This document shows positions 7,101 through 48,421 of a DNA stretch of 64,000 nt, one piece after another. Every line of letters starts with the position of its first letter. Within the stretch, counting starts at the first letter, position 1. The notes beneath the pieces are model-generated. The model was not told where the DNA came from and did not search any database. It saw only the letters and a list, made by a program, of their open reading frames with translations. The position numbers were made by a program, and so were the translations under genes. The DNA is from an uncultured Planctomycetia bacterium (lineage in GTDB: Bacteria > Planctomycetota > Planctomycetia > Pirellulales > Thermoguttaceae): positions 57,153-121,152 of the forward strand of contig CAWAAL010000024.1 in assembly GCA_963779975.1 (NCBI GenBank), given 5' to 3'.

Positions 7101-7272
7101 CACGCAACGGATCGCCAAGGACGGCCGGATCGTGGAGGTGCGGCTGTCTGCCACTGCCTTGATGAACGAAATCGGAAAAGTGTATGCCATCGCGACCACG
7201 GAGCGGGAGATACGCGGGCAAGATGAGGATAGGGCCTCTATGGTCACGAGAAGGAAGCCTGGCCATGACTAA
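4114..7272 (+). CDS. CheB methylesterase - CheR methyltransferase - coiled coil - PAS sensory protein, 3 frameshifts in this sequence
   Basis: Track ORFs 4114..4608, 4313..5323, 5211..6134 and 6208..7272 read as one protein. Motifs: GIGASAGGLAAFEAFF, LPIDFFFRSLA, VWVPGCSTGEEAFSIAILI, NEEL-repeat coiled coil, two PAS. Frame changes lie near 4575-4590, 5149-5152 and 6116-6121. Confidence 0.8.
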
Positions 7273-8995
7273 GAAACGACCTCGTGCAGACGATTTCGCC
7301 GATCTGCGTCGGCGGGCGGAGGAAAAGGCTCACGCCGACGAGGCCCAGGTTCAGAAACCGCTATCGCCCAAGGAATCCGGACGGCTGCTCCACGAGTTGC
7401 AAGTGCATCAGATCGAGCTGGAGATGCAGAACGAGGAACTGCGCCGGGCACAGGGCGAACTCGAAGCCGCGCGGGCGCGGTATTTCGACCTCTTCGACCT
7501 GGCGCCGGTGGGCTATTTCACCCTCAGCGAACAGGGGCTGATCCTGGAAGCAAACCTCACGGCGGCCAGTTTACTGGGCGTGGAGAGACGCGACTTGGTC
7601 AAGAAGCCGTTGACGCGCTTCATCCTTCCGGAGGACCAGGATATCTACTACCGGCATCGCAAGCAACTCTTTGAAACGGGCACGCCGCAGGTGTACGATC
7701 TGCGAGTGCTGCGTGCAGACACCGACCCCTTCTGGGCGCGTTGGGAGACGACCGAGGCGCAGGATGCTGACGGTGCGCCCGTGTGCCGGGCCGTGATGAG
7801 CGACATTACCGCGCGGAAGCAGGCAGAGGAGAAGTTGGCCGAACTGGACCGCCGCAAAGATCAATTTCTGGCGATGCTCAGCCATGAACTTCGCAACCCT
7901 CTTGCCCCCATCCTCAACTCCGTGCAACTGCTTCAACTCCAGAAAAGCCAGAACTCCGTTCAACAAAAGGCCCTGGCCATCATCGAGCGACAGGTGGGGC
8001 AACTGACGCACTTGGTTGGCGACCTGTTGGAAGTCTCCCGCGCGATCACCGGCAGGATTCAGCTTTGCCAAGAGCAAGTCGCCGTGAACAGCATCGTGGA
8101 ACGTGCCCTGGAGACGGCTCGTCCGCTGATCGACCAGCGCAAACATGAACTCACGGTGTCGCTGCCGCAAGACCCGATTTGGCTGTACGCCGACGCCTCC
8201 CGGCTGGAGCAAGTCGTGACGAACCTCCTCACCAACGCCGCCAAGTACACCAAGGAAGGCGGTCACATCTGGCTCTCCGCCGAGCAGGAGGGCGACAAAG
8301 CGGTGTTGCGCGTGCGGGATACGGGCCTCGGCATTGCTCCCGCGTTCCTGCCTCACGTCTTCGAATTGTTCACGCAAGCCGAGCGGTCATCCGACCGTTC
8401 GCAGGGCGGGTTAGGCATTGGATTGACCCTGGCGAAGCGGCTGGTCGAAATGCACGGAGGAACCATAGGGGTCTCCAGCACTTTGGGGCAAGGTAGCGAG
8501 TTCGTCGTGAGCCTTGTCGTCTGTCCGCCAGGAACGATCTCGGGCCGGGCCGGGTACCAGCGCAGCGGGTGGGCTTGCGGGTGGCAGCCGCCTGCAACGG
8601 AAATAGCCAGGCCGACCGAGTCAGTCTTGCGGGTCCTGGTGGTGGACGATAACCTGGATGCGGCGAATGCCTTGAAAATGCTGGTGGAGGAAGCGGGGCA
8701 TTTGGTGCGGATGGCTTACACCGGCCCGACGGCATTGGCAGCGGCCCTCGATTATCGGCCCGACGTGATGCTGCTGGACATCGGCCTGCCGGAGTTGGAT
8801 GGCCTTGAAGTGGCAAAGCGGATACGTCAGGAGCCCCTACTCCGCGACATCGTGCTAGTAGCCGTGACGGGGTATCGACAGGCGGCAGACCGGCAACGTG
8901 TGCTGGAAGCGGGGTTCGATCACTATTTGGTCAAGCCCGCCGACTTCGAGAAGGTGCGACAAATCTTGGCGGAGGTCGCGGAGAAGGCGACCTGA
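7265..8995 (+). CDS. hybrid sensor histidine kinase (PAS-HisKA-HATPase_c-REC)
   Basis: ATG 7265 overlaps the end of the upstream gene. LAMLSHELRNPLAPI (H-box), GLGIGLTLAKRLVEMHGG, and a C-terminal receiver (VLVVDDN...MLLDIGLPELDG). Confidence 0.85.
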   Translation: MTKKRPRADDFADLRRRAEEKAHADEAQVQKPLSPKESGRLLHELQVHQIELEMQNEELRRAQGELEAARARYFDLFDLAPVGYFTLSEQGLILEANLTAASLLGVERRDLVKKPLTRFILPEDQDIYYRHRKQLFETGTPQVYDLRVLRADTDPFWARWETTEAQDADGAPVCRAVMSDITARKQAEEKLAELDRRKDQFLAMLSHELRNPLAPILNSVQLLQLQKSQNSVQQKALAIIERQVGQLTHLVGDLLEVSRAITGRIQLCQEQVAVNSIVERALETARPLIDQRKHELTVSLPQDPIWLYADASRLEQVVTNLLTNAAKYTKEGGHIWLSAEQEGDKAVLRVRDTGLGIAPAFLPHVFELFTQAERSSDRSQGGLGIGLTLAKRLVEMHGGTIGVSSTLGQGSEFVVSLVVCPPGTISGRAGYQRSGWACGWQPPATEIARPTESVLRVLVVDDNLDAANALKMLVEEAGHLVRMAYTGPTALAAALDYRPDVMLLDIGLPELDGLEVAKRIRQEPLLRDIVLVAVTGYRQAADRQRVLEAGFDHYLVKPADFEKVRQILAEVAEKAT

Positions 8996-9046
8996 CGCCC
9001 ACGAATCGGGTAGAATGGCCTGCGATTCACAACAGGGTTCAAACCG

Positions 9047-9088
9047 TCCGACGTGGCCGAAGGCCTTGGAGTGTTCCGTCACGTCGGC
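9047..9088 (+). repeat. terminator-arm-only copy of the repeated module hairpin, no U-tract
   Basis: CCGACGTGGCCGAAGGCCTTGGAGTGTTCCGTCACGTCGG is ~85% identical to the module terminator hairpin but is followed by CGGGATT. It ends 26 nt before the REC-DUF2294 start codon. Confidence 0.55.
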
Positions 9089-9113
9089 GGGATTGGCGAA
9101 AGAGAGAAAACTT

Positions 9114-9974
9114 ATGCCAGGGACAGGGAAAGTTCTTCGGGTTCTCGTGGTCGATGACGACCGAGACGGTGCGGACACGCTTGGCCTGCTCGTTGAAGAA
9201 CTCGGCAACCAGGTACATGTGACCTATGGCGGGACGTCGGCACTCGACGTTGCGACCGTATTTCGGCCCGACCTGATGTTGATCGACCTGGCAATGCCTG
9301 ACATGGATGGATGTCATCTCGTTGGGCAATTTCGCCAGATTCCGGCCTTCGCGAAGACGCGAATCGTGGCGGTCACCGGCCATGCCAACGAGGGACATAG
9401 AACCTTGGCCATGAAGGCCGGGTTCGATAAGGTCCTCTTCAAGCCTGTTGCTCTGAAAGAAATCAAAGCGGTCTTAGCCAGTGTCGTTCAGGGGGGCGCA
9501 CTTGCGGGCCCATCGCCGCAACCGGCCAAGAAGCATGCGAGTTCCCAAGCAGAACGACGTTTGCCGATTAACGAAGCGCGTAGAATCAGGAAGGATCGCA
9601 AATCAGGAATCCTCACTCAAGCAGAAAGCGAAGCAGCCGTCTGCGAGGGGATCATTCGCTTTCAAGAGGACTATTTGGGAGGGGGGGCGGAGCAGATCCG
9701 CGTACACTTCATCAAAGACCTCCTCGTGATCCGCATTCTGGGTGCTTTGACGGTGGCCGAGCGGCAACTGGTCAAGTCCTTTTCGCCGGAGAAAGGGAGG
9801 GATCTCATCAAGCAGACACGGGAACAACTGCTGGAGTTGGCACGCCCGATGTTGGAATCGATGGTCCATGAGGTCGTGGGCGTGAAGGTGTTGAGCATGC
9901 ACCACGACATCAGTACTGTGACCGGGGAAGAAGTGGTCCTCTTCAGCTTGACCGAGGCACCTCGCTTTTCCTAA
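9114..9974 (+). CDS. response regulator: receiver domain fused to DUF2294 (MpsC-like) domain
   Basis: ATG 9114. REC (LVVDDDRDGADTL...MLIDLAMPDMDG...FKP), a linker, then a full DUF2294 pattern (ESEAAVCEGIIRFQEDYLGGG...LSMHHDISTVTGEEVVLFSL). Confidence 0.8.
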   Translation: MPGTGKVLRVLVVDDDRDGADTLGLLVEELGNQVHVTYGGTSALDVATVFRPDLMLIDLAMPDMDGCHLVGQFRQIPAFAKTRIVAVTGHANEGHRTLAMKAGFDKVLFKPVALKEIKAVLASVVQGGALAGPSPQPAKKHASSQAERRLPINEARRIRKDRKSGILTQAESEAAVCEGIIRFQEDYLGGGAEQIRVHFIKDLLVIRILGALTVAERQLVKSFSPEKGRDLIKQTREQLLELARPMLESMVHEVVGVKVLSMHHDISTVTGEEVVLFSLTEAPRFS

Positions 9975-10248
9975 GGTCGGCAAGCCGCCAGGGCAAAAGC
10001 CGCCAGGGCAAAAGTCGCCACAGACGCCGATCCCCGACACTTGGGAACTACTGTAGAGACCAAGGAGATTCCTCGTGGTCGGGGCAAATTGCATGCAGGA
10101 CATCCTGTTCCACCGCATCGTGACCATTAGGGCGTTTGGGTGGCGAGTCCTCTCTTGGGCTGTTTTCGAGAGCCAGGGCGACACATTCCTCTCCTTGGCT
10201 CCAAGGAGACGCGTTCTTTGAAGCGACGACTTCGCGAGAATAACTCTC

Positions 10249-10396
10249 TTGCCTTTGCCTCATAGCGGCATACAATGATGGCAGAGTCGCGATACACTCG
10301 ATCGCGACTCTGCAACAAGAATGTCGGATGACTAGATAGAGAGCAACCCGGCCGTACGGGGAGGCTCGTTAGTGAGTAAGCCGACGTGGTCGAATA
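10249..10396 (+). ncRNA. GTCGGATGACTAG-box RNA module, copy 1 (3'-truncated)
   Basis: -35 TTGCCT 10249-10254, 16 nt, -10 TACAAT 10271-10276. 13-bp P1 hairpin 10281-10313; box 10323-10335. The terminator 5' arm breaks at 10396 into an antisense gene relic. Confidence 0.7.
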
Positions 10397-10819
10397 GTCG
10401 TACAGCTCGCGCAGTTGCGTTTCCGGCAGTTCGACGGGCGCCAAATACGGGAAGAGCATCATGTGCTCCCAAGGCATCCAGACCAGTGGAAACGACGGAC
10501 GGATTGGCGCACGAGTGAAGGCGAACGGGTTGACGCCGGACAAGGCAATCGTGGACTCGGCCGTGAGTATGAGTTCCGTGTAGGGTTGGCTGATCTCGAA
10601 TCGACTGGCCGAATTGCCAAAGACATCTTCGAATTCCATGATCGGGACGGCGGGAACAATCTGCAAGCGATAGTTCAAGACGCTCTGATGGACGTCATTG
10701 ATCGGCCGCAGGTGGACGCAATGCTTGCTGTGCTGAACGGGCTGATTGTAACCAAACCGGGTCGTGTGCTTGACAGTCAAGCGACGGCTGCCAATCGTGG
10801 ACGGGACGGGCATGGTCAT
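10397..10819 (-). pseudogene. transglutaminase N-terminal-domain (Bact_transglu_N-like) protein, 3'-truncated by module copy 1
   Basis: RLTVKHTTRFGYNQPVQHSKHCVHLRPIND...FEDVFGNSASRFEI fits the family. Similarity ends at ...LRELYDY, after which the ORF translates the module antisense. Confidence 0.6.
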
Positions 10820-11344: not shown

Positions 11345-11530
11345 TAGCCAGTCGGCAAGGGATCGCTAAAATATAGATGTAACCGCTCCAAAGAGCTTGA
11401 ATGCTCGGATTACGATGAATGTTTGTCGGATGACTAGATGAAATACAACCCGGCCTTGCCGGGGGGTTCGTTGAAGAGTAAGCCGACGTGGCCGAATACC
11501 TGCGGGTGTTCCGCCACGTCGGCTTTTTTG
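11345..11530 (+). ncRNA. GTCGGATGACTAG-box RNA module, copy 2
   Basis: Divergent promoter region (TAGCCA, 16 nt, TAAAAT 11367-11372). Box 11425-11437; full terminator; T6 11524-11529. 75 nt to ATG 11605. Confidence 0.7.
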
Positions 11531-11604: not shown

Positions 11605-11883
11605 ATGTTGTTCTTGGCGCAATCACTACTCACGATGGCGGGCTTTGAGTACGACGAAATCGACGAAACCTGGGTAGCGCGAATGCCGTTGCGTCCTCTT
11701 GTGGCGGTCGAATGCGACGAGGATCGAGCTTACGTCCGGGAGGCGCTGAGGGAGGTCCAAGCGAGTCTTGACGCTATCGGCTGCGCCTACGACAACTACT
11801 TCGTGGTCAACGGCCGCTTCGTCTCCGTCCCAGGGCCTAGCGCCCGTGCGGCTACGGGTCTGGACGAACAGGATGACGGTTAA
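11605..11883 (+). CDS. hypothetical protein
   Basis: ATG 11605 follows RBS GGAGGA (MLFLAQSLLTMAGFEYDEIDETWVARMPL...). No family recognised. Confidence 0.4.
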   Translation: MLFLAQSLLTMAGFEYDEIDETWVARMPLRPLVAVECDEDRAYVREALREVQASLDAIGCAYDNYFVVNGRFVSVPGPSARAATGLDEQDDG

Positions 11884-12694: not shown

Positions 12695-12880
12695 TTGCCT
12701 TCGCCGCGTAGCGGCGTATGATAGTTGTATTGGGAGAATCGCGGCGCACTTGATCGCGACCTTTCAACGCAATTGTCGGATGACTAGATAGAGAGCAACC
12801 TGGATGTGCCAGGGGGCTCGTTGAAGAGTAAGCCGACGTGGTCGAATGCCTTCGGGTGTTCCGCCACGTCGGCTTTTTTC
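12695..12880 (+). ncRNA. GTCGGATGACTAG-box RNA module, copy 3
   Basis: TTGCCT 12695-12700, 16 nt, TATGAT 12717-12722. Box 12775-12787; P2 variant CCTGG/CCAGG; T6 12874-12879. 74 nt to ATG 12954. Confidence 0.75.
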
Positions 12881-12953
12881 GTTTTCGGTGTTGCGGGAAC
12901 AGTCGCAACGACCGAGCATGGTCCTTGGACAATCTCAAAAAGGGAGAGTTATC

Positions 12954-13028
12954 ATGTACATCGGTGGCGGATTGGTTACGCTTGTGATCATCGTCTTGGT
13001 TGTCATGTTCCTCGTTCGCGGCTCTTGA
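12954..13028 (+). CDS. possible 24-aa hydrophobic peptide
   Basis: RBS AAGGGAGAG, then ATG 12954: MYIGGGLVTLVIIVLVVMFLVRGS. The tail resembles the DUF3309 C-terminus (LLLVRGF at 3329). Confidence 0.35.
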   Translation: MYIGGGLVTLVIIVLVVMFLVRGS

Positions 13029-17801: not shown

Positions 17802-17918
17802 TTCCTTGCCGGCGCAACCATCTTGGACGGCAGAGCCTTGGCGATAAATGGCGCGGTAACACTCGATGACAACACGATCACCGCGCCAAGTTCGGTTCCA
17901 GAACCCGTATCCCTAAGC
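17802..17918 (+). pseudogene. relic of a DUF3494 (ice-binding-like) protein C-terminus with start of a PEP-CTERM motif
   Basis: FLAGATILDGRALAINGAVTLDDNTITAPSSVPEPVSLS parallels ATILNGRALAQTGAVTMDTNTIS of the 18149 gene. It is cut at the -35 of module copy 4 and has no 5' part. Confidence 0.55.
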
Positions 17919-17922
17919 CCCA

Positions 17923-18105
17923 TTGCCTTTGCCCTTTGGCGGCGTAAAATGTGAGTGTTGGAAGAGTCGCATGGCAGATCGCGCTGCTCCAACGTAATTG
18001 TCGGATGACTAGAAAGAGGGCAACCCGGCCCTGCCGGGGGGCTCGTTAGCGAGTAAGCCGACGTGGTCGAATACCTCCGGGTGTTCCGCCACGTCGGCTT
18101 TTTTC
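17923..18105 (+). ncRNA. GTCGGATGACTAG-box RNA module, copy 4
   Basis: TTGCCT 17923-17928, 16 nt, TAAAAT 17945-17950. Box 18000-18012; T6 18099-18104. 44 nt to ATG 18149. Confidence 0.75.
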
Positions 18106-18148
18106 GTGCTTGGTTGCGCATCACAGTCACTTCACACGGAGACCCACG

Positions 18149-20779
18149 ATGTTCTGCCCGAGTTTCGCTCCCCTGTTCGGAAATTCCTGGTCTCGCAAGC
18201 GCACCCGCCGGACGCCGGTTGCGAAACGCCTCACTCGGCCGCTGTCGCTGCTTCGCCTGGAATACCTGGAAGATCGCCGAATGCTCACGAGTATTCTGGG
18301 CTCGGCGGGGAGTTTCGCGGTTCTGGGCGCCTCGACGGTGACCAATACCGGCCCGACCACCATCACCGGAAATCTGGGTGTGTACGCGGGTAGTTCGATC
18401 ACGGGCCTGGGGAGCATCACGATCACGGGAACGGTACACCAAACGGATGCGGTCGCGCAGTTGGCGCAGGCCGATAACACCACCGCGTACAATGGTCTGG
18501 CGAACATGCCGTTCAACAGCGACTTGACGGGCGAGGATCTGGGTGGACTCACGCTCGTGTCGGGCGTCTATCATTTTGACTCGGCGGCCCAGTTGACGGG
18601 AACACTCACGCTCAACGCCCAGGGCAACAACAATGCGTTCTGGGTTTTCCAGATAGGGAGCGGGCTGACGACCGCCAGCAACTCGGCGGTTCAGGTGATC
18701 AATTTCGGTTCGAATGGCGGTTCCGATGACGGCGTGTTCTGGCAGGTCGGCAGTTCCGCCACGCTCGGCACCGCCACTTCGTTCGAAGGGAATATTCTCG
18801 CGCTGGCGAGCATCACCCTCAACACCACCGCAACCATTCTGAACGGCAGGGCCTTGGCGCAAACCGGCGCGGTGACGATGGATACCAACACCATCAGTAA
18901 CGTCTGCCCGCTGGGCGGCCCCGGTAACGGCGGCCCCGGCTACAGCGGCGGCCTTGAGTTCAATCCCATTGGCAAAGTCGTGCCCGTTACCCCGGGCGTC
19001 ATCCCGCCAACCGGGCCAGGCGTCATCGGCGGCATGAAGTTCGACGACCTGAACGGGAGTGGGGTGCAGAATGCCGCCGATCCGGGCCTGGCGGGGTGGA
19101 CGGTTTACGTAGACTACAACGACAACGGCGTGTTCGACAGCGCCACGGAGCCGTCGGCAGTGACGGGCCCGGGGGGAACGTATACGATCACGGGCGTGAC
19201 GCCGGGCACCTGGAAGGTGCGGGAAGTCGGCCAGACAGGCTGGACGACCTCGCTTCCTGCGACAAGCGACGTCTACGGCGCCTACCAGCTAGTCACCGTG
19301 CCGGCGAACGGGTCGTTGGTAGGGGTCGAATTCGGCAATTATGAGCAGACCTCGATCCACGGCTACAAGTTCAACGACCTGAACGGCAACGGCGTGGACA
19401 ACAGCGAGCCGCGGCTTGCCGGCTGGACGATCGTGCTGGTCGGCACGACCGGCGCGGGCACTGCGGTCTCGACCACCACGACGACGGGAGCCGACGGCCA
19501 GTATTCGTTCACCGGCCTGGCGCCGGGAACCTACACCGTGAGCGAGCAGAACCAGACCGGCTGGACGCAATTGGCCGGCGGGGCGACGTTCACGCTCACC
19601 AGCGGCGAAGAGGCGGTGGCCTATACCGGTGAGGCGGGCACGCTGTTGCCCGGTCAGGCCGAGGTGCTCACTGCCGGGCTGGCCTTCGGCAACCATCATC
19701 GTAATGTGATCGTCATCGCGCAGGCCAAGAGTCCGAACACGCCGCAATTGGTCCGAGTGATCGACGAGGGGAGCGGGGCCGTGTTGTCGCAGTTCGCACC
19801 GTACGGCAAAACCTTCCAGGGCGGCATTCGGATCGCCACCGGCGATCTCATCGGCAATGGCGCCGACGAGATCGTTACGGCGCCCGGATGGAGCACGGTT
19901 GCGGTCGTCAAGGTGTACAGCCAGACGGGCGTTCTGCTGACGTCCTTCGATCCGTACGGCCCGACGTTCACGGGCGGCGTCCAGGTGGCGATCGCCGACG
20001 TCGATGGCGACGGGTTGAACGACATCATCACGGTTCCCAGCTACGGGCCTGCCGAGATGAAGGTGTTCCGGAACCTGGGCGTCGTGGGTGGAGTGCCCAC
20101 GTTCAATGCATCGCTGCCCTACAGGGAATTCCTCGCCTTTCCGTCGTCGTTCATCGGCGGCGCGGTGGTTACCGCGGCCGACATGGGAAGCACCCCGCTG
20201 GCAAACGGACCGTTCGTCCCCGGGCTGCTGGACGGGAAGGCGGAAATCGTCGTCGGGAGCGGCGCCGGCATGAAGACCACGGTGAAGGTGTTCGACGTTA
20301 GCCGCATGACCACACTCATGCCCAACAGTGTGGCCGCGGCCGTTGCGAGTTTCACTCCTTTCAGCACAGCCACTTTCACTTATAAAGGGGGGGTGTCGCT
20401 CAGCGTGGCGAGGATCAGCGCCAGTCTCACCCCGGACATCATCGTGGGGGCCGGCGTCGCCGGCAATTCCCTGGTGGACGTTTGGGCCTGGAACACTCCT
20501 TCCCCCACGTTGTCCAGTTTATCGGCCAATGGCATGGGCTTTGCCGCGTTCACCGGTCCGAGTCAAACCGCGCCGGTTGAGGTAGCGGCAATGGACACTG
20601 CCGGTAACGGCATCGCGGATACGATTATTGCCGTGCAGGGACCTGGTGGGACCACGGGCCAGATCCGCGCGTTCAAGATTACCAGCGTCTCGCCGCTCCA
20701 GGTTTCGCCACCCACGACAGTCCCCGGCAGCTATCTGCAACCCTATTTCATCGATCAGGTTTTCGCGGCATACGTGTGA
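18149..20779 (+). CDS. large secreted surface protein: DUF3494 ice-binding-like domain + 2 SdrD-B/Cna-B-like domains + FG-GAP/VCBS-like region
   Basis: ATG 18149. N-terminal LRLEYLEDRRMLTS leader, then ILGSAGSFAVLGASTVTNTGPTTITGNLGV..., GxKFxDLNGxGV repeats, and DVDGDGLNDIIT-type repeats. Confidence 0.7.
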   Translation: MFCPSFAPLFGNSWSRKRTRRTPVAKRLTRPLSLLRLEYLEDRRMLTSILGSAGSFAVLGASTVTNTGPTTITGNLGVYAGSSITGLGSITITGTVHQTDAVAQLAQADNTTAYNGLANMPFNSDLTGEDLGGLTLVSGVYHFDSAAQLTGTLTLNAQGNNNAFWVFQIGSGLTTASNSAVQVINFGSNGGSDDGVFWQVGSSATLGTATSFEGNILALASITLNTTATILNGRALAQTGAVTMDTNTISNVCPLGGPGNGGPGYSGGLEFNPIGKVVPVTPGVIPPTGPGVIGGMKFDDLNGSGVQNAADPGLAGWTVYVDYNDNGVFDSATEPSAVTGPGGTYTITGVTPGTWKVREVGQTGWTTSLPATSDVYGAYQLVTVPANGSLVGVEFGNYEQTSIHGYKFNDLNGNGVDNSEPRLAGWTIVLVGTTGAGTAVSTTTTTGADGQYSFTGLAPGTYTVSEQNQTGWTQLAGGATFTLTSGEEAVAYTGEAGTLLPGQAEVLTAGLAFGNHHRNVIVIAQAKSPNTPQLVRVIDEGSGAVLSQFAPYGKTFQGGIRIATGDLIGNGADEIVTAPGWSTVAVVKVYSQTGVLLTSFDPYGPTFTGGVQVAIADVDGDGLNDIITVPSYGPAEMKVFRNLGVVGGVPTFNASLPYREFLAFPSSFIGGAVVTAADMGSTPLANGPFVPGLLDGKAEIVVGSGAGMKTTVKVFDVSRMTTLMPNSVAAAVASFTPFSTATFTYKGGVSLSVARISASLTPDIIVGAGVAGNSLVDVWAWNTPSPTLSSLSANGMGFAAFTGPSQTAPVEVAAMDTAGNGIADTIIAVQGPGGTTGQIRAFKITSVSPLQVSPPTTVPGSYLQPYFIDQVFAAYV

Positions 20780-22455: not shown

Positions 22456-22543
22456 CTACTACTTCTTTACGTCGCGGAGAATGGGCGACTCGGCGCGGGT
22501 GAAGAAGAACGACCTCCTCGCCGGTGACGGTGCTGATGTCATT
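22456..22543 (-). pseudogene. DUF2294 gene relic (frameshifted 3' end)
   Basis: The reverse strand reads NDISTVTGEEVVL, then is out of frame through one extra T relative to relic 12586-12672. It lies 22 nt left of the copy 5 promoter. Confidence 0.65.
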
Positions 22544-22565
22544 TGAAAGAAGGCCAATAGCCCTA

Positions 22566-22748
22566 TTGCCTTTACCCTTTGGCGGCGTACAATGTGACTG
22601 TTGGAAGAGTCGCATCGCAGATCGTGCTGCTCCAACGAAGTTGTCGGATGACTAGAAAGAGGGCAACCCGGCCCTGCCGGGGGGCTCGTTGACGAGTAAG
22701 CCGACGTGGTCGAATACCTCCGGGTGTTCCGCCACGTCGGCTTTTTTC
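22566..22748 (+). ncRNA. GTCGGATGACTAG-box RNA module, copy 5
   Basis: TTGCCT 22566-22571, 16 nt, TACAAT 22588-22593. Box 22643-22655; T6 22742-22747. 30 nt to ATG 22778. Confidence 0.75.
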
Positions 22749-22777: not shown

Positions 22778-23791
22778 ATGTCGATCTTACCACACTTTCA
22801 CCAACCCCTGCAGACCGCGACAAAACAGCAGATTTTCCAGCAACATCGCCATGGCGACTCGGCGGAGTCGCTGGCCCGGCGTTTTTGTCGGTCCTGCACC
22901 CGCATTTACGGCATCATCAAGGAGATCCGGGCCGCACGGATCATGGAACTGCCGCTGGACTCCATGGGCAACGAGCAGTTTGCCCGCCTGTGCTCGGAGA
23001 AGAAGGAACGCGAGATATTACAGCCACCGCCGGAAGGCGATCTGGCGGCGAAGAAGTCGCGCGTGCCCGCCGGCATGCCCGCGTATCTGGCCAACCTGTA
23101 CGACGTGCCCCTGCTGACGCACGAGGAGGAGGTCCATCTCTTTCGGAAGATGAACTATCTCAAGTTCAAGGCGAGCGGGCTCCGCGACGCCCTCGACGTG
23201 AACCGGCCCAAGAGTTGCCTGATGGACCAGATCGAGGATCTGTACGACGAATCGGTCGCAGTCCAGAATCAGATCATCCGCGCCAACCTGAGGTTGGTGG
23301 TCGGGATTGCCAAGCGGTACGTCGGTCCGGCGGAAGACTTCTTCGAACTGGTCAGCGACGGGAACATGTCGTTGATCCGCGCCGTGCAGAAGTTCGATGT
23401 TTCGCGGGGCAACAGGTTCAGTACGTACGCAACTTGGGCGATCATGAAGAATTTCGCCCGCACGATCTCCGACGTGCTCCGTCAGCGGGGCCGTTTTTGC
23501 ACGAACCACGCGGAAACGTTCGGCGGCGCCGAGGATGACCGCACGGACCAGTACGAGCAGGCGTCGGCCCAAATCCAGCGGGAATCGCAAGTCGAGGGGA
23601 TCCTCGAGCGACTCGACGAGCGGGAGCGGCAGATTGTCACGAGCCGTTTCGGCCTGGCGCGCGGCCAGGAACCGCTGACCTTGAAGCAGGTCGGGGCTGC
23701 GATCGGCGTAACCAAAGAGCGGGTCCGTCAGATCCAGTGCCGGGCGATGAGCAAATTGAGAACGGCTGCCGAGGAGGACGGAATCGAGTGA
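22778..23791 (+). CDS. alternative sigma-70 family factor (regions 2-4, long N-terminal extension)
   Basis: ATG 22778. [72 protein letters not shown]...TLKQVGAAIGVTKERVRQIQ. Confidence 0.8.
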   Translation: MSILPHFHQPLQTATKQQIFQQHRHGDSAESLARRFCRSCTRIYGIIKEIRAARIMELPLDSMGNEQFARLCSEKKEREILQPPPEGDLAAKKSRVPAGMPAYLANLYDVPLLTHEEEVHLFRKMNYLKFKASGLRDALDVNRPKSCLMDQIEDLYDESVAVQNQIIRANLRLVVGIAKRYVGPAEDFFELVSDGNMSLIRAVQKFDVSRGNRFSTYATWAIMKNFARTISDVLRQRGRFCTNHAETFGGAEDDRTDQYEQASAQIQRESQVEGILERLDERERQIVTSRFGLARGQEPLTLKQVGAAIGVTKERVRQIQCRAMSKLRTAAEEDGIE

Positions 23792-24981: not shown

Positions 24982-26214
24982 ATGGAACCCGCGAAAGCCG
25001 CTAGCCCGCGCATCCTGACGATCAACGGCGGCTCGTCGAGCATCAAGTTCGCGCTTTTCGAGGCCGGTGCCCCGCCGAAGCGGGTTCTTTCGGGCGGGAT
25101 TGAGCGGATCGGAACGCCGGATGCCACCTTCCAGGTGAAAGGCTTCGGCCAGATGGAGAATTTCTCGCGGCGAATTGCCGCGCCGGATCACACCGCGGCC
25201 GTGGGCGCTCTGATGGATTGGATCGAGGAACAAATCGGTAGTGGCGCCTTGACCGCGGTGGGGCATCGCGTCGTGCATGGCGGGCCGAAGTACAGCGACC
25301 CGGCGTTGATCACCAAGGAAATGGTCGAGGAGTTGCGTCAACTCAAACCATTCGATCCGGAGCACCTGCCGGAAGAGATCCAGTTGACCGAGGCATTTCA
25401 TCGCCGATTCCCTGACCTGCCGCAAGTGGCCTGTTTCGATACGGCCTTTTACCATGACCTGCCGCGCGTGGCCCAGTTGCTGCCGATCCCGCGCCGCTAC
25501 GAGGCGCAGGGCGTGCGCCGGTACGGCTTTCACGGGCTGTCGTATGCGTTTCTGATGGAAGAGCTGGCCCGCCTGGCGGGAGCGGAAGCGGCACAAGGCC
25601 GGATCATCCTCGCCCACCTTGGCAATGGCGCAAGCCTGGCGGCAGTGCATCACGGCAAAGCCGTGGACACGAGCATGAGTTTCACCCCGACCGCCGGCGT
25701 GCCGATGAGCACCCGCTCAGGCGATCTCGATCCCGGACTCGTTTGGTATCTGGCACGCACGGAGAAAATGAGCGCAAAGCAATTCAACGAGATGGTCAAT
25801 TTCCAGTCCGGGCTGCTCGGCGTGTCGGAGACCAGTTCCGACATGCGCGACCTGCTCGACCAGGAGACGCAGGACGTGCGGGCGGCGGAAGCGGTCTCGC
25901 TGTTTTGCTACCAGGTCAAGAAATGGATCGGCGCATTCGCGGCGGCGCTCGGTGGATTGGACACGCTGGTGTTCGCGGGAGGCATCGGCGAAAACGCTCC
26001 CGCGGTCCGCGCCCGGATTTGCCAAGGGCTGGAATTCCTGGGGATCGAACTCGAAGAAAAACACAACGCGGCCAACGCAGGCGTGATTTCCGCGTCCGCC
26101 AGGCGGGTAAGCGTCCGCGTCATTCGCACCGACGAAGAACTGATGATCGCCAAGACGGCTTGCCGCGTTCTTGGTCTGAGCGGACCCCAACCCGCTTGCG
26201 GTTTGTCGATTTAA
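24982..26214 (+). CDS. ackA: acetate kinase
   Basis: ILTINGGSSSIKFALFE, VGHRVVHGG, RRYGFHGLSY, AHLGNGASL, FAGGIGENAPAVR. Confidence 0.9.
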   Translation: MEPAKAASPRILTINGGSSSIKFALFEAGAPPKRVLSGGIERIGTPDATFQVKGFGQMENFSRRIAAPDHTAAVGALMDWIEEQIGSGALTAVGHRVVHGGPKYSDPALITKEMVEELRQLKPFDPEHLPEEIQLTEAFHRRFPDLPQVACFDTAFYHDLPRVAQLLPIPRRYEAQGVRRYGFHGLSYAFLMEELARLAGAEAAQGRIILAHLGNGASLAAVHHGKAVDTSMSFTPTAGVPMSTRSGDLDPGLVWYLARTEKMSAKQFNEMVNFQSGLLGVSETSSDMRDLLDQETQDVRAAEAVSLFCYQVKKWIGAFAAALGGLDTLVFAGGIGENAPAVRARICQGLEFLGIELEEKHNAANAGVISASARRVSVRVIRTDEELMIAKTACRVLGLSGPQPACGLSI

Positions 26215-26302
26215 TCGAAAACTGACCAAAGAATAAGGACTTACGCCGACAGCATTGACGTACTCCGTATTTATCGGTGCATCCCGGCCTTAAATCGACA
26301 GA

Positions 26303-26541
26303 CCGCTTGCCGGGCTGGTGAAGAAGTCTTTCTAGCGAGTAAGATCCGCAACAACCGATCAACGACCCCTGCCAGCTTGTCTGGCAGGTGAAGGAGTTTT
26401 GTTAGCGACTCGACAGGATCCCAACGATCCTCTTGTCGCGTCCGGTCCGGCACCCGGAGGGTGCCGGACCGGACGCGAAATGCGTTGGGGAGACGGCACC
26501 GTTCTCGCTAATAAAACTCGTTCACCAGCCCGGCAAGCGGG
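26303..26541. repeat. three ~41-nt related repeats (two direct, one inverted) in the ackA-xfp spacer
   Basis: 26303-26343 CCGCTTGCCGGGCTGGTGAAGAAGTCTTTCTAGCGAGTAAG; 26373-26413 CAGCTTGTCTGGCAGGTGAAGGAGTTTTGTTAGCGACTCG; 26501-26541 is the reverse complement of a third copy. Confidence 0.7.
26437..26477. repeat. perfect 19-bp inverted repeat, 3-nt loop
   Basis: CGCGTCCGGTCCGGCACCC-gga-GGGTGCCGGACCGGACGCG. No U-tract on either strand. Confidence 0.85.
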
Positions 26542-26743
26542 CTGGGGTCCCGAATAGATGCTGGAGACGCGTATCCGCCAATTCAGTTTGTGAGTTGCCC
26601 GTGCGATTTATATAATTGATGCGATCGCAGAGAAACCGGATGTATTGAGAGAGCAAACCCTGGATCATCCGCCTGATCGTCCTTGGCAGTTGAGTTTCCT
26701 TTGAGTTGCAAAACATGAAACGAAGAAGAGGGAGCCTTGATCC

Positions 26744-29150
26744 ATGACGACAAAAGCCCTTTCCCCCGAACTGCTCCAGAAGATGGACGCTTATTGGCGC
26801 GCCGCGAACTATCTCTCGGTCGGCCAGATTTACCTTTATGACAATCCCCTCCTGAAGCGGCCGCTTGCGCTTGCCGACGTGAAGCACATGCTGCTGGGAC
26901 ACTGGGGCACGACCCCCGGACAGAACTTCATCTACGCACACCTGAACCGGGTCATCAAGAAATACGACCTCGACATGATTTATGTCTCCGGTCCGGGGCA
27001 CGGCGGCCCGGCCGTCGTGGCCAACACGTACCTCGAAGGCACGTACAGCGAGGTCTATCCCGACATCAGCCAGGACGAGGCCGGGCTGCGGAAGCTCTTT
27101 CTGCAGTTCTCGTTTCCCGGAGGAATTCCCAGCCACGCATCGCCCGAGTGCCCGGGCTCGATCCACGAGGGCGGCGAGTTGGGCTATTCGCTCAGCCATT
27201 CGTTCGGAGCGGTGTTCGACAATCCCGGTCTCATCGTCGCCTGCGTCGTCGGCGACGGCGAGGCGGAGACGGGACCGCTGGCCACGGCGTGGCATTCGAA
27301 CAAGTTCCTCGATCCGGCCACCGATGGCGCGGTGCTGCCGATCTTGCATCTCAACGGCTACAAGATTTCCAACCCGACCATCCTGGCCCGCATCGAGCAC
27401 GAGGAATTGGAGCAGTTGCTCCGCGGCTACGGGTGGACGCCCTACTTCGTCGAGGGGCACGAGCCCGAACTGATGCACGAGGCGATGGCCGCGACGCTCG
27501 ACGCGGCGGTGGAGCAGATCCGACAAGTCCAGGACAACGCCCGCCGACCATCGGTAGATGGCGCCCCCTACAGCCTGACGCGTCCGCGCTGGCCGATGAT
27601 CGTGCTGAACTCGCCCAAGGGCTGGACGGGGCCGAAGATGATCGATGGATTGCAAGTGGAAGGCACCTTCCGGGCGCACCAGGTGCCGCTCTCCGATCCG
27701 GCGACGCATCCGGAACACCTCAAGCTGCTGGAAGACTGGCTGAGGAGCTACCGGCCGGAGGAACTCTTCGACGATTCAGGCCGCCTGAAAGCGGAGTTGG
27801 CCGAACTGGCGCCCCAAGGCCAGCGGCGCATGGGCGCCAATCCCCACGCCAACGGCGGCCTGCTGCTCCGCGACCTGCGGATGCCGGACTTCCGCGACTA
27901 CGCGGAAGCCGTACCCTCGCCGGGCGCGCGCGGCATCGGCGAACGTCCACGTGCTCGGGCCTTTCCTCCGCGACGTGGCGAAGCTCAACGCCGAGCCGAC
28001 CATGGGTACACGGTGCCCGAACTTTCGCGTCTTCGGCCCTGACGAGACGCTCTCCAACGGCCTGGAGGCCCTTTTCGAAGTGACGCAGCGCCAATGGGAC
28101 GCCGCAACCGTGCCCAACGACGAATTCCTCGCGCCCGCGGGGCGGGTGATGGAAATGCTCAGCGAACATCAATGCGAGGGCTGGCTCGAAGGCTACCTGC
28201 TCACCGGGCGGCATGGACTCTTCAACTGCTACGAGGCCTTCATCCACATCGTCGATTCGATGTTCAACCAGCACGCCAAGTGGCTGAAGGTCACGTCGCG
28301 CTTGCCGTGGCGGCGGAAGATCGCCTCGCTGAACTACCTGCTGGCCTCGCACGTCTGGCGCCAGGACCACAACGGTTTCACGCACCAGGACCCCGGTTTC
28401 ATCGATCACGTCCTGAACAAGAAGGCCGAAATCGTCCGCGTTTACCTCCCCCCGGACGCCAACTGCCTGCTCTCCGTGATCGACCACTGCCTCCGCAGCC
28501 GGCATTACGTGAACGTCGTGGTCGCGGGCAAACACCCCGCGCCGCAGTGGCTGACGATGGACGCCGCCGTCAAGCACTGCACCGAGGGCATCGGCATCTG
28601 GCCGTGGGCGAGCAACGACCAGGGCGTCGCCCCCGACGTGGTCATGGCCTGCTGCGGCGACGTGCCCACGCTGGAGACGCTCGCCGCCGTCTCGATCCTC
28701 CGCGAGCATCTGCCGGAGTTGAAGATCCGGGTGCTCAACGTCGTCGACCTCATGCGGCTGCAACCGCAAAGCGAACACCCGCACGGGCTGAGCGACATGG
28801 ATTTCGACGAGCTTTTCACCAAGGACAAGCCGGTCATCTTCGCGTTCCATGCCTACCCATGGCTGGTCCACCGGCTGACCTACCGCCGCACCAACCACCG
28901 CAACATCCACGTCCGCGGCTACAAGGAAGAGGGCACCATCACCACGCCCTTCGACATGACGGTGCTGAACGATCTGGACCGCTTCCATCTTGTGATGGAC
29001 GTCATCGACCGCCTGCCGCAGACCGGCGACAAGGGCATCTATCTCAAGCAGCAACTCAAGGACAAGCTCATCGAGCACAAGCAATACATCGAGAAGTACG
29101 GCCAGGACCTGCCGGAAATCCGCAACTGGAAGTGGGACAACCTCAAATGA
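26744..29150 (+). CDS. xfp: phosphoketolase (xylulose-5-P/fructose-6-P), 1 frameshift in this sequence
   Basis: Track ORFs 26744..28042 and 27951..29150 together cover a full ~800-aa Xfp ([62 protein letters not shown]). The shift is near 27941-27946. Confidence 0.9.
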
Positions 29151-30396: not shown

Positions 30397-30581
30397 TTGC
30401 CTTTTTTGCGTGGCTGGTTACAATGACCGGTGGGAAGAGTCGCGGCGGACTAGACTGTGGCTTTTCACTGGAATTGTCGGATGACTAGATAGAGGGCAAC
30501 CCGGCCGTGCCGGGGGGCTCGGTAGCGAGTAAGCCGACGTGGTCGAATACCTGCGGGTATTCCGTCACGTCGGCTTTTTTC
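30397..30581 (+). ncRNA. GTCGGATGACTAG-box RNA module, copy 6
   Basis: TTGCCT 30397-30402, 16 nt, TACAAT 30419-30424. Box 30476-30488; T6 30575-30580. 56 nt to ATG 30637. Confidence 0.75.
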
Positions 30582-30636: not shown

Positions 30637-31170
30637 ATGTCCGAGAAGAAGTCCGTTGTCGCTATTTTTGAAACCCACGATCAAGCCGAGGACGCTGTTC
30701 GCGAACTCCAGAAGGACGGCTTCGACATGAAGAAGCTGTCGATCGTCGGCAAGGCTTACCTCACGGACGAGCACGTCGTCGGCTACTACAACACGGGCGA
30801 CCGCATGATGTATTGGGGCAAGCTGGGGGCCTTCTGGGGCGGCTTCTGGGGACTGCTCTTCGGCTCCGCGTTCTTCTGGGTGCCGGGCATCGGTCCGCTC
30901 GTCGTGGCGGGACCGTTGGTGACCTGGATCGTCGCCGGGCTCGAAGGCGCCGTCATGACAGGATCGCTCACCGCTCTCGGCGCAGGACTCTACAGCATCG
31001 GGATTCCCAAGAACAGCATCGTAGAATACGAGACCGAGGTGAAGAGCGGCAAGCTTCTCCTGGTTGCCCACGGAACGGCCGACGAAGTGGAACACGCCCG
31101 GGACCTCCTGCATCAGACGGGAGTGGAGACAGCAACGGTTCATGCGGAGCGGGTCGCAGTCGGCGTCTAA
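30637..31170 (+). CDS. YflT/general-stress-protein-17M-like domain membrane protein
   Basis: VVAIFETHDQAEDAVRELQKDGFDMKKLSIVGK, then glycine-zipper TM segments, then LLLVAHGTADEVEHARDLL. Confidence 0.5.
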   Translation: MSEKKSVVAIFETHDQAEDAVRELQKDGFDMKKLSIVGKAYLTDEHVVGYYNTGDRMMYWGKLGAFWGGFWGLLFGSAFFWVPGIGPLVVAGPLVTWIVAGLEGAVMTGSLTALGAGLYSIGIPKNSIVEYETEVKSGKLLLVAHGTADEVEHARDLLHQTGVETATVHAERVAVGV

Positions 31171-38336: not shown

Positions 38337-38522
38337 TTGCCTTTTCCCTTCGGCGGCGTACAATTTCAGTGTTGGAAGAGTTGCGGGGCACTTGTTCGCG
38401 GCTCTCCAGTGAAATTGTCGGATGACTAGATAGAGGGCAACCTGGCTGTGCCGGGGGGCTAGTTGAAGAGTAAGCCGACGTGGTCGAACACCTTAGGGTA
38501 TTCCGCCACGTCGGCTTTTTTG
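38337..38522 (+). ncRNA. GTCGGATGACTAG-box RNA module, copy 7
   Basis: TTGCCT 38337-38342, 16 nt, TACAAT 38359-38364. Box 38417-38429; T6 38516-38521. 84 nt to ATG 38606. Confidence 0.75.
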
Positions 38523-38605: not shown

Positions 38606-39052
38606 ATGAGTCGAGATGCAATTGACAGAATGGAAATCCTCATGGTCGAGGATAACTTGCAGAATGCCAACGGCACGATACAGGCCCTCAAATGGGGCAA
38701 CGTGCAATGCCGAGTGAGCCTGGTCTGCGATGACGAGGAAGCGATCCGCTTTCTCTACCGTAAGGGTGAATTCGCCAAGGCGCCGACGCCCAACCTGATC
38801 CTGCTGGACATGCAGTTGCCCAAGGAGGAAGGTCAGCGCTTGCTTGCGGAAATCCGCGCCAACGAAGAACTCAAGGACATTCCCGTTGTGGTCCTCACCG
38901 GTTCACTGGATCACCGAGCGGGTCTTCACGTCCAAGAGATTCAGGTGGACGGCTTGATCACGCACCCCGTGGAGTTGGACAAGTTCATCGGTGTGGTCAA
39001 GTCGCGTCGCCGGTCTTGGTTGACCGACCTTGCGCTGTCCTCCATTGCCTGA
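38606..39052 (+). CDS. single-domain response regulator (receiver only)
   Basis: ILMVEDNLQNA, LILLDMQLPKEEG, PVVVLTGS, and K in DGLITHPVELDKF. Confidence 0.8.
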   Translation: MSRDAIDRMEILMVEDNLQNANGTIQALKWGNVQCRVSLVCDDEEAIRFLYRKGEFAKAPTPNLILLDMQLPKEEGQRLLAEIRANEELKDIPVVVLTGSLDHRAGLHVQEIQVDGLITHPVELDKFIGVVKSRRRSWLTDLALSSIA

Positions 39053-40257: not shown

Positions 40258-40444
40258 TTGCCTTTGTACCCTCATGACGTACAATGATGGTGTTGGAAGA
40301 GTCGTGGCGCGATTGATCTCGACTCTCCAGCGAACGTGTCGGATGACTAGATGAAGAGCAGCCCGGCTGTGCCGCGGGGGCTCGTTAGTGAGTAAGCCGA
40401 CGTGGTCGAATACCTTGGGGCATTCCGCCACGTCGGCTTTTTTC
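40258..40444 (+). ncRNA. GTCGGATGACTAG-box RNA module, copy 8
   Basis: TTGCCT 40258-40263, 16 nt, TACAAT 40280-40285. Box 40338-40350; T6 40438-40443. 101 nt to ATG 40545. Confidence 0.75.
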
Positions 40445-40453
40445 GTTTTCCTA

Positions 40454-40525
40454 AGAACGTTCGGAAGAAATTGGTGCCAGTCACACGTTTGTCCCGGGCT
40501 TCCGCTCATTTCTTCCGAACGTTCT
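40454..40525 (+). repeat. second hairpin element (IR2), copy A
   Basis: AGAACGTTCGGAAGAAAT ... ATTTCTTCCGAACGTTCT (18-bp arms, 36-nt interior), immediately after the copy 8 U-tract. Confidence 0.75.
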
Positions 40526-46670: not shown

Positions 46671-46862
46671 TTGCTTTCCTCATGCCGCGCCATACAATGG
46701 TTAATGGAGGGGTGGCGAAGTCGAAAGCCGCTCGCCCCAGAAGTGAATTGGAAGTCGTCGGACGACTAGATAAAGAGCAAGCCGGCCGTGCCGGGGGGCT
46801 CGTTAGTGAGTAAGCCGACGTGGCGGAATACCTCCGGGTGTTCCGCCACGTCGGCTTTTTTC
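46671..46862 (+). ncRNA. GTCGGATGACTAG-box RNA module, copy 9 (box variant GTCGGACGACTAG)
   Basis: TTGCTT 46671-46676, 16 nt, TACAAT 46693-46698. Box 46757-46769; T6 46856-46861. 38 nt to ATG 46900. Confidence 0.7.
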
Positions 46863-46899: not shown

Positions 46900-47115
46900 A
46901 TGAGAAGGCTGATGTTCGTGGTCGTTTTGCTCGTGATCGGCATCGCCGGCTTCGGGTATTACCGCGGTTGGTTCGCTTTCACGGTGGACAAAGACAAGTT
47001 CCACCAAGATGAACAAACAACCAGGGAAAGGGTGCAAGGCGCCGGGCAAGAGGCCAAGGAAAAGGTCGACAATCTGACTGGCGGCAAGGTCAAAGAACCC
47101 CAGCGCCAACCCTGA
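46900..47115 (+). CDS. small N-terminally anchored membrane protein
   Basis: MRRLMFVVVLLVIGIAGFGYYRGWF, then a charged tail (KDKFHQDEQTTRERVQGAGQEAKEKVDNL). RBS GAGGA. Confidence 0.5.
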   Translation: MRRLMFVVVLLVIGIAGFGYYRGWFAFTVDKDKFHQDEQTTRERVQGAGQEAKEKVDNLTGGKVKEPQRQP

Positions 47116-47384: not shown

Positions 47385-47571
47385 TTGCCTTTTTCCCCTT
47401 GCGGCGTATAATGATGGTGCTGGCAGAACCGCGACGCACTTCATCGCGACTCTGGCAGTGAAATTGTCGGATGACTAGATAGAGAGCAACCCGGCCGTGC
47501 CGGGGGGCTCGTTAGCGAGTAAGCCGACGTGGTCGAATACCTGCGGGTGTTCCGTCACGTCGGCTTTTTTG
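47385..47571 (+). ncRNA. GTCGGATGACTAG-box RNA module, copy 10
   Basis: TTGCCT 47385-47390 (8 nt after the DUF1328 stop), 16 nt, TATAAT 47407-47412. Box 47466-47478; T6 47565-47570. 29 nt to ATG 47600. Confidence 0.75.
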
Positions 47572-48138: not shown

Positions 48139-48339
48139 TTGTGCTTCTCTTTCCGTACGGTATAATTGGAGTGTGCTGCGAGGCGGCGGAGAGCTCCGCG
48201 CGACTTGCTGACGCAGTGGATTTGAATTCGTCGGATGACTAGATAAAGAGCAACTCGGCCGGAATGGCCGGGGGGCGCGTTGAAGAGTAAGCCGACGTGG
48301 GCGAATGCCTTTGGGTGTTCGGCTACGTCGGTTTTTTTG
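48139..48339 (+). ncRNA. GTCGGATGACTAG-box RNA module, copy 11 (most divergent)
   Basis: TTGTGC 48139-48144, 16 nt, TATAAT 48161-48166. Box 48230-48242; P2 variant CGGCC-ggaat-GGCCG; T7 48332-48338. 109 nt to ATG 48448. Confidence 0.7.
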
Positions 48340-48349
48340 TTTTCTGCTT

Positions 48350-48421
48350 AGAACGTTCGGAAGAAATTGGTGCGAGTCCCGCGTTTTTCCAGGGCTTCCG
48401 CCCATTTCTTCCGAATGTTCT
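48350..48421 (+). repeat. second hairpin element (IR2), copy B
   Basis: AGAACGTTCGGAAGAAAT ... ATTTCTTCCGAATGTTCT, same position relative to the module U-tract as copy A. Confidence 0.75.

Follow-up and report, generated by a model that had tools for sequence, protein, structure and literature searches.

A conserved promoter, leader and terminator module before stress-type genes of Planctomycetota: a candidate transcription attenuator

Little is known about gene regulation in the Planctomycetota. In the literature searched, the only cis-regulatory RNA motif of planctomycetes that we found was Rhodopirellula-1, a repeated candidate element that lies before short hypothetical genes and whose alignment reads AACnA..CGGAUGAAC..stem..GUUAUCC..CGUU, with a long variable loop (Weinberg et al. 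2010, PMC2864571). Here we analyse a different repeated element, present in a stretch of 64,000 nucleotides (nt) from an uncultured Planctomycetia bacterium of the Thermoguttaceae (assembly GCA_963779975.1, contig CAWAAL010000024.1, positions 57,153 to 121,152 of the forward strand), the whole of which is called the window in the following. The element, called the module, consists of a promoter, a leader with a conserved box and hairpin, and an intrinsic terminator, and it is found directly upstream of genes. We read it, with a probability of about one half, as a transcription attenuator of the ON type by which stress genes are gated, in which a helix between the box and the 5' arm of the terminator would act as the antiterminator and which would answer to a putative effector.

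Identity of the module with Rhodopirellula-1 was ruled out: that motif has another sequence and another architecture, and it has neither a terminator nor the strings GACUAGA and GAGUAAG (PMC2864571). A comparison with Rfam 15 gave no match for the whole window at the gathering threshold, and for positions 17900-18160 at E ≤ 10 it gave matches at chance level only (mir-662, 15 bits; PhotoRC-I, 11 bits). A full-text literature search for the conserved strings of the module yielded no paper, keyword searches on small RNAs (sRNAs), riboswitches and attenuation in Planctomycetes yielded nothing relevant, and the terms sRNA, small RNA, riboswitch, non-coding/noncoding and stress response are absent from a 2025 review of the Planctomycetota. 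The module is a real and ancient RNA element that is not catalogued in Rfam and was not met in the literature searched.

Anatomy and distribution of the module

The plus strand of the window contains ten complete copies of the module and one truncated copy. The earlier note on this DNA, which was made from the sequence alone, had counted eleven copies; eleven boxes were indeed found, but the first copy is without the 3' arm of the terminator. The box, GTCGGATGACT, occurs 11 times on this strand, ten times exactly and once (at 46757) with one mismatch, where ~1.1 occurrences are expected by chance, and the string AGTAAGCCGAC has 11 exact plus-strand occurrences. A covariance model (R1) that was run on the window recovered the ten full copies with 106-126 bits as well as the truncated one at 10318-10422, and gave no further match. 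Two minus-strand matches to the box with one mismatch, at 8385 and 15522, were discarded as chance occurrences: the surrounding sequence is unrelated and there is no module.

The alignment of the 11 copies gave the following order of parts: the promoter, a variable 5' hairpin (P1), the box (in the RNA GUCGGAUGACUAGAnAGAG), a two-part hairpin (P2), the string GAGUAAG, a terminator stem of 19 base pairs (bp) and a U-tract. We describe these parts for copy 4, which extends on the plus strand from the promoter at 17923 to the end of the U-tract at 18104. The promoter (17923-17950) has a -35 hexamer TTGCCT (17923-17928), a 16-nt spacer and a -10 hexamer TAAAAT (17945-17950). Hairpin P1 (17958-17994), as delimited by the minimum free energy (MFE) fold and the alignment, differs in sequence among the copies and is missing from a short-leader class in other genomes. 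The conserved single-stranded box (18000-18018) has a phylum-wide core UCGGA(U/C/A)GACUAGA. Its ACU (18008-18010) pairs with AGU (18052-18054) in the MFE and RNAalifold structures, to form a closing helix around P2 (18015-18047), a hairpin of two helices that are split by a conserved AA/GG internal loop. The invariant stretch GAGUAAG + GCCGAC (18051-18062) is the proposed partner of the box and also provides the first 6 nt of the terminator stem. The intrinsic terminator (18057-18104) is formed by the 19-bp stem (18057-18098), with a recurrent C-C mismatch, G-U pairs and the loop UCCG, and by six U (18099-18104); in the window copies the arms read GCCGACGUGGUCGAAUACC and GGUGUUCCGCCACGUCGGC, and are followed by a tract of six U. 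The RNA of the whole module folds with -72.7 kcal/mol (z = -4.9 versus shuffled controls), and in the mature MFE structure the box is mostly unpaired, the invariant stretch measuring 14-19 nt. A sigma-70-type scan described the window promoters as TTGCCT-16-TAcAAT. The module is organised as a self-contained transcription start unit: a near-consensus sigma-70-type promoter, a leader of about 110-165 nt and a strong intrinsic terminator.

To delineate the distribution we scanned one genome per species with a pattern in which the box core and the CCGAC arm were left unspecified and ACU and AGU were fixed. At least 118 stretches of DNA were recovered from more than 100 different contigs, almost all of them Planctomycetota. 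The lineages among the listed matches were: Pirellulales, Planctomycetaceae, Thermoguttaceae, Gemmataceae, Isosphaeraceae, Tepidisphaeraceae and Phycisphaeraceae (Phycisphaerae); the few contigs labelled outside the phylum are metagenome bins. An nhmmer search of the fetched loci then gave at least 181 distinct full copies, and some of the analyses below were made on 130 aligned homologs. The copy density is 11 in 64 kb for the window, and 44 of the 118 fetched 8-kb loci hold 2-4 copies. A promoter of the form TTGC-N16-TAnAAT is found upstream of the box at a fixed distance in 151 of 180 copies. Two leader classes occur: a short one, in which the -10 hexamer and the box are 5-14 nt apart, P1 is absent and the box lies at or near the very 5' end of the transcript, and a long one (45-70 nt) that includes P1.

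As a separate observation on the promoters of the window, an A-rich stretch with a partial inverted repeat GAAAGAAGGCCAATAGCCCTATTGCCTTT extends over the -35 hexamer and ~30 nt upstream of it in copies 3, 5, 6 and 8 (e.g. 22540-22571). This type of upstream repeat is found in ~4-5 of the 11 copies and is absent from copies 4, 7 and 10; copies 3 and 5 have ~45 nt of additional upstream identity in common. The repeat could be an UP element, an operator or the mere trace of a duplication.

Linkage to downstream genes and covariation of the RNA

The connection between the module and the next gene was evaluated with two tests. In the stricter one, an ATG or GTG preceded by a Shine-Dalgarno sequence and opening an open reading frame (ORF) with a coding-type GC pattern was found within 150 nt of the U-tract in 54% of the modules, versus 14% at random positions and 29% on the divergent upstream side. 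The gap between the U-tract and such a start is ~48 nt in the median of the homologs and ranges from about 16 to 110 nt; some starts lie 16-22 nt past the U-tract, which leaves no room for a promoter in between. In the looser test, the first downstream feature was a co-oriented coding region in at least 131 of the 160 testable cases (at least 82%), and of the 23 calls of an opposite orientation several are demonstrably false (e.g. the Hsp20 gene of L090; L numbers are our own handles). All ten complete copies of the window lie in a 5' untranslated position, co-oriented with the gene and close to it (gaps of 29-109 nt), and an intrinsic terminator before the coding sequence, with the 19-bp stem and 6-9 U, is present in nearly all copies. 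The claim that the spacers between U-tract and gene have no second promoter held in the sigma-70-type scan of the window for every spacer except the one behind copy 3, where a promoter-like site was found at 12926-12955.

The spacer sequences form recurrent families that match orthologous genes across genomes. The module-gene pairs that were recovered repeatedly include: Hsp20 with a gap of 28-29 nt (window, L021, L090), a sigma factor of 337 amino acids (aa) with 22-30 nt (window, L014, L017), YflT with 50-56 nt, a glycosyltransferase with 36 nt in L022 and L064 and 109 nt in the window, and MpsC/DUF2294 with 45-50 nt in more than ten genomes. Pfam domains found in the downstream products were MpsC (the commonest, 20 of 92), Hsp20, ferritin-like, CsbD, Transgly_assoc (GlsB-like), SPFH/Band 7 and DUF1003; other downstream genes encode YflT, sigma-70 family proteins and REC/PAS kinases, and the module of L015 is followed by a 642-aa product that we take to be DnaK, as recognised by eye from its N-terminal sequence. 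The set of genes behind the module resembles a general-stress or heat-shock regulon. The data support that the module behaves as a cis-linked 5' leader, unlike a randomly placed sRNA gene. The spacer before MpsC shows a peculiarity of its own: it is itself conserved across L034, L037, L050, L059, L063 and L111 (GUUCUUGGCGACG..AGACGUUCGCAAUCACUGCGGGAGG, 40-50 nt past the U-tract) and contains a small hairpin directly 5' of the Shine-Dalgarno sequence.

Covariation was seen in P2 and in the terminator. In the 130 aligned homologs, 11 of the 12 pairs of P2 are changed on both sides; in the terminator the fifth pair changes from A:U to G:C, with further covariation at NN and YR positions higher up the stem, and all the measures for P2 and terminator were above those of shuffled and slid controls. 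A mutual-information scan of 181 copies recovered P2, the terminator and one non-Watson-Crick pair in the internal loop of P2, and nothing else: there was no pseudoknot or other partner of the box, which covaries with no column. In this loop (18022-18023 versus 18039-18040 in copy 4) the covarying pair is found as A-G (113 homologs), A-A (17), G-A (12) or C-G (12), beside an invariant A-G, which suggests that the loop is made of tandem purine-purine pairs and is a structured recognition site.

The box had been described as imperfectly complementary to the GAGUAAG-GCCGAC segment, with 9 pairs in 12 positions and a GUCGG:CCGAC core. This complementarity is real, with nine Watson-Crick pairs, although it covers 11 positions rather than 12: GUCGG:CCGAC and ACU:AGU, around a 3x3 loop (AUG/AAG). 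The recurrence of the GUCGG of the box in the 3' arm of the terminator (CGUCGGC) was likewise confirmed. Because the search pattern had fixed ACU and AGU, we made a forced-variant scan of metagenomes for copies in which C15 of the box is not C. It gave 14 copies, 13 with a U (the partner being G in 11 and A in two independent lineages) and one with a G opposite G. The pair C15:G59 of the ACU:AGU helix is thus seen to go from C-G to U-G to U-A (Fisher p = 0.005; A at the partner position in 0 of 179 canonical copies), and the sister copies L119 and L131 have as their sole difference a G versus an A at that position. This establishes the ACU:AGU helix, by which GUCGG and CCGAC are brought directly face to face. 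In the predicted folds of transcripts that end before the 3' arm, GUCGG:CCGAC, ACU:AGU and P2 are all present in the MFE structure of 109-114 of the 130 homologs (~88%).

One variant of the box deserves separate mention. In ~35% of the copies position 7 is a C, by which the box becomes GUCG-GA-CGAC, self-complementary with a central tandem G-A and a short palindrome as DNA; two RNAs could dimerise via this sequence.

The attenuator reading and its alternatives

As an ON-type attenuator the module would operate as follows. In the emerging RNA the box (GUCGG...ACU) would pair with AGU...CCGAC and close a rod-like hairpin around P2 with its conserved internal loops. The 3' arm (CGUCGGC, a copy of the box) would, once made, normally displace the box to give the 19-bp terminator and the release of a short RNA. 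Upon induction, the closing helix would be held by an effector (a protein, a small ligand or an ion) with specificity for the conserved loops and the box strand; the lowest 5-6 pairs of the terminator would then be blocked and RNA polymerase would read into the stress gene. The anatomy, the phylum-wide conservation, the gene linkage, the covariation of P2, terminator and ACU:AGU and the predicted order of folding are results of the analysis, while the formation of GUCGG:CCGAC, the conditional nature of termination and the existence of an effector are inferred. The predicted energies would make termination (OFF) the default outcome, the terminator being the favoured fold of the complete RNA, and read-through would need an effector that stabilises the closing helix. 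A thermosensor switch was set aside: the energy gap between terminator and antiterminator shrinks only from 9.7 kcal/mol at 20 °C to 6.3 kcal/mol at 55 °C, and temperature alone is unlikely to flip the fold.

The switch between antiterminator and terminator had been put forward in the earlier note, and the cis-linkage, the nascent fold and the compensation in ACU:AGU speak for it. A number of observations weigh on the other side, and most of them concern the GUCGG:CCGAC core, which has no true covariation. It is pairable in ~95% of the copies, but only because both strands, like the 3' arm, are almost invariant, and double compensation was found at none of its pairs in the 181 copies. The common change of A to G in the arm (CCGGC) is compensated in the 3' arm (18-20 cases) while the box stays U (a U-G wobble), four of the six U-to-C changes in the box yield C-A mismatches, the first position of the box fails to pair in ~10 of the 181 copies, and the central U:A pair at box position 7 is kept in only 104 of 181. 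In the complete RNA at 37 °C, the terminator is predicted to be 7.5 kcal/mol more stable than the forced antiterminator. Moreover, the sequence of the terminator is itself conserved throughout the phylum, a property that is seldom seen in riboswitch expression platforms and is commoner among sRNAs or protein-binding sites, and ~15-20% of the modules are without a co-oriented gene that is confidently called by our heuristic test.

Of the 181 copies, 173-177 have the same triplets in arm, box and 3' arm, and the metagenome forced-variant scan yielded no compensated change of the arm G:C pair (position 18060 in copy 4), where a control variant scan gave 14 matches. Together these results point to a sequence constraint on the lower terminator stem that goes beyond pairing. 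Such a constraint fits a strand that has two alternative partners; a protein-binding site would fit likewise.

The properties that are shared with sRNAs make a second explanation worth weighing, in which every copy of the module is a separate gene for a multicopy (sibling) sRNA that starts at the module promoter and ends at the module terminator. The box would then be a seed for messenger RNAs elsewhere, and the downstream genes would be expressed only when polymerases happen to pass the terminator or from promoters that the scan did not recognise. A promoter and a strong terminator with a tail of 6-9 U are found in each copy, the invariant stretch of 14-19 nt is unpaired in the mature MFE structure, the short-leader class has the box at the extreme 5' end (as many Hfq-type sRNAs have), and a terminator hairpin that is conserved in sequence next to a box that covaries with nothing would be as expected. 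We nevertheless consider it unlikely, as position and orientation depend on the neighbouring gene: the spacing is short and fixed, co-orientation is at least 82% versus ~50% for independent genes, the spacers of 16-50 nt that hold the Shine-Dalgarno sequence have no room for a promoter, and orthologous module-gene pairs are kept between genomes. The box does look like a seed, but sites complementary to it are not in excess within the window (1 extra site versus ~4 expected by chance). The same arguments from cis-linkage weigh against a protein-titrating or dual-function leader, in which the box of an abundant short RNA would sequester a global RNA-binding regulator and read-through would be secondary. 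A GGA of the box could be presented in a mini-hairpin GUC-GGAU-GAC (the form GUCG-GA-CGAC being self-complementary), the copies are numerous (11 in 64 kb, 2-4 in 44 of the 118 loci), and in the internal loops the box strand is conserved while the linker opposite varies, which suggests sequence-specific recognition of the strand; with a single GGA site per RNA and no candidate protein identified, we give this explanation little credit.

Two further explanations were weighed. If the leader were constitutive, and a stress sigma factor or DNA-binding regulator acted at the promoter while the terminator let a fixed fraction of polymerases pass, the RNA would serve to stabilise the 5' end, to allow processing or to couple translation, and the extreme conservation of box and GAGUAAG would be left unexplained. 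That the promoter belongs to the conserved unit, and that a sigma-70-family gene and two-component genes are themselves found behind the module, agrees with such control; the hexamers, however, look like ordinary strong sigma-70 sites, and the A-rich partial inverted repeat over the -35 hexamer is seen in some window copies only (~4-5 of 11). A GC-rich 19-bp stem followed by U6-9 is furthermore a very efficient terminator, hard to justify before chaperone genes unless it can be overridden, and we judge this explanation distinctly unlikely. Hardly credible is a pure DNA element, i.e. a repressor operator or a mobile promoter-terminator cassette: the module is repeated and the box is quasi-palindromic as DNA (GTCG-GA-CGAC, in the ~35% of copies with C at position 7), but the compensatory changes that preserve P2, the terminator and ACU:AGU indicate selection on RNA, the spacing between promoter and box falls into two classes (5-14 nt or 45-70 nt), terminal repeats and target duplications are absent, and P1 and the flanks have diverged among the copies.

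The ON-type attenuator is thus the reading that we carry forward. A more specific version of it, which we offer tentatively, is that the module represents a new RNA sensor class: the rod-like hairpin closed by the box:arm helix may have as its ligand a small molecule or ion linked to stress, or else a protein dedicated to it, and antitermination may then switch on a phylum-wide general-stress/heat-shock regulon (chaperones, CsbD/YflT/GlsB-type proteins, sigma factor, MpsC). In addition, the terminated leaders, being abundant, might form a pool of RNA that acts in trans.

MpsC/DUF2294, the commonest gene behind the module and present in the window as a REC-MpsC fusion (8898-9974), was the one candidate examined as a possible RNA-binding antiterminator. 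Its homologs number in the thousands and include many REC-MpsC proteins of ~223 aa, and no solved relative was found by sequence. An AlphaFold2 (AF2) model with a predicted local distance difference test score (pLDDT) of 88.6 gave only weak matches to V4R, H-NOX and BcsD-like folds. No RNA-binding fold was seen among these, so RNA binding gains no support, and a literature search for DUF2294 turned up only unrelated 'mPSC' papers. At 7184-9974 of the window a PAS hybrid histidine kinase is followed by this receiver-MpsC/DUF2294 fusion, the real start of which is probably later than 8898 because its close homologs measure ~223 aa.

One conserved RNA element with its promoter is found before dozens of stress genes per genome and in several orders. 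If its terminator is regulated, the module would define the RNA-level wiring of the general stress/heat-shock response of the phylum and would constitute a new attenuator or riboswitch-like class with a putative effector. As a regulon marker it would make any gene behind it a candidate stress gene, and genetic tools for these bacteria could make use of it as a compact part that combines promoter and leader.

The copies in the window and their surroundings

All copies are on the plus strand. Copy 1 (10249-10396) breaks off after GUGGUCGAAUA, its terminator 3' arm missing, and is overlapped by a minus-strand ORF (10127-10819) in which only an N-terminal transglutaminase-like domain (residues 14-91) is present; for these two reasons the junction near 10397 looks like the scar of a deletion or rearrangement. 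For copies 2 to 11 the distances between U-tract and start codon in the earlier note were reproduced exactly, and are given here between brackets. Copy 2 (11345-11529) is followed by a 92-aa ORF at 11605 (75 nt), and copy 3 (12695-12879) by a short ORF at 12954 (74 nt) and next a WXXGXW-repeat protein. The gene behind copy 4 (18149-20779, with its ATG 44 nt past the U-tract) encodes a surface protein of 876 aa with ice-binding-like, SdrD-B and FG-GAP domains. The genes behind the following copies encode: a sigma-70-family protein at 22778 (copy 5, 22566-22747; 30 nt), a YflT-domain stress protein at 30637 (copy 6, 30397-30580; 56 nt), a stand-alone receiver-domain protein at 38606 (copy 7, 38337-38521; 84 nt) and a DUF4440/SnoaL-like protein at 40545 (copy 8, 40258-40443; 101 nt). 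Copy 9 (46671-46861), with the box GUCGGACGACU, precedes a 71-aa ORF at 46900 (38 nt), copy 10 (47385-47570) an Hsp20-like gene at 47600 (29 nt) and copy 11 (48139-48338) a glycosyltransferase gene at 48448 (109 nt).

The long spacers of copies 8 and 11 (101 and 109 nt) are due to a second repeated element, located between terminator and start codon at 40454-40525 and 48350-48421. It is a 72-nt hairpin with a near-perfect 18-bp stem (AGAACGUUCGGAAGAAAU ... AUUUCUUCCGAACGUUCU; -37 kcal/mol, z = -4.8), and could be a further regulatory hairpin or a small inserted repeat. The other genes of the window include those for two PAS hybrid kinases, the REC-MpsC fusion, a 660-aa sigma-70, an SPFH protein, a P-type ATPase and a fatty-acid desaturase. 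Amid the module-rich region, at 24982-28042, genes for an acetate kinase and a phosphoketolase (XFP) are found without a module of their own.

Comparison with known systems

Several described systems share part of these properties. With the sibling sRNAs (Qrr1-5, LhrC1-5, csRNAs, NsiR1 arrays) the module has in common that several near-identical copies occur, each with a promoter and a Rho-independent terminator, and that there is an invariant unpaired stretch; unlike them it is placed strictly before a gene of the same orientation, with 16-110 nt in between, in conserved pairs and in a much larger copy number. The cis elements of heat-shock genes (the ROSE and fourU thermometers; the CIRCE and HAIR operators) are, like the module, repeated conserved elements directly before hsp20, dnaK and other stress genes. 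The module is not a translational thermometer, because the Shine-Dalgarno sequence and the start codon are outside of the conserved element and downstream of the terminator (the Shine-Dalgarno sequence 3' of the U-tract) and are not sequestered; in contrast to ROSE and fourU, its ten GC-rich basal pairs would not melt at physiological temperature. Unlike the case of CIRCE and HAIR, the covariation indicates an RNA element and not a DNA operator.

Mechanistically the module resembles the antiterminator/terminator leaders (ON riboswitches, T-box, the ribonucleic antiterminator (RAT) and ANTAR leaders), while being a member of none of these groups. Compared to the RAT leaders (BglG/SacY/LicT) and ANTAR leaders (EutV/NasR/AmiR), it has no RAT consensus and no pair of hexaloop hairpins, being a single long hairpin that is interrupted by internal loops, has 3-7 nt in the P2 loop and is not joined by a second small hairpin, and no PRD or ANTAR protein is implicated. 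Like those leaders, it has an irregular hairpin with conserved internal loops that overlaps the first nucleotides of the terminator, the terminator is thermodynamically dominant, such that a bound protein would be needed, and regulator genes (receiver domains, sigma factor) are found behind it. From the ON riboswitches and T-box leaders the module differs in that it matches no Rfam family, that the role of sensor would fall to one rod-like hairpin interrupted by internal loops, and that the regulon is of the general stress/heat-shock type and not a metabolic pathway. Instead of a conserved aptamer with variable expression platforms, the whole terminator hairpin is conserved, in 181 of 181 copies, a count to be read with the fact that the search pattern required part of the 5' arm, so that terminator-less variants may be missed. 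The correspondence with the pbuE adenine riboswitch and the T-box antiterminator/terminator is in the design: a 5' leader with its own promoter and, as predicted, termination by default, one element that is placed before many genes, a closing helix of which the 3' strand would also be the 5' arm of the terminator and, as in the T-box sequence, a conserved segment, here GAGUAAGCCGAC, that would have to satisfy two alternative partners.

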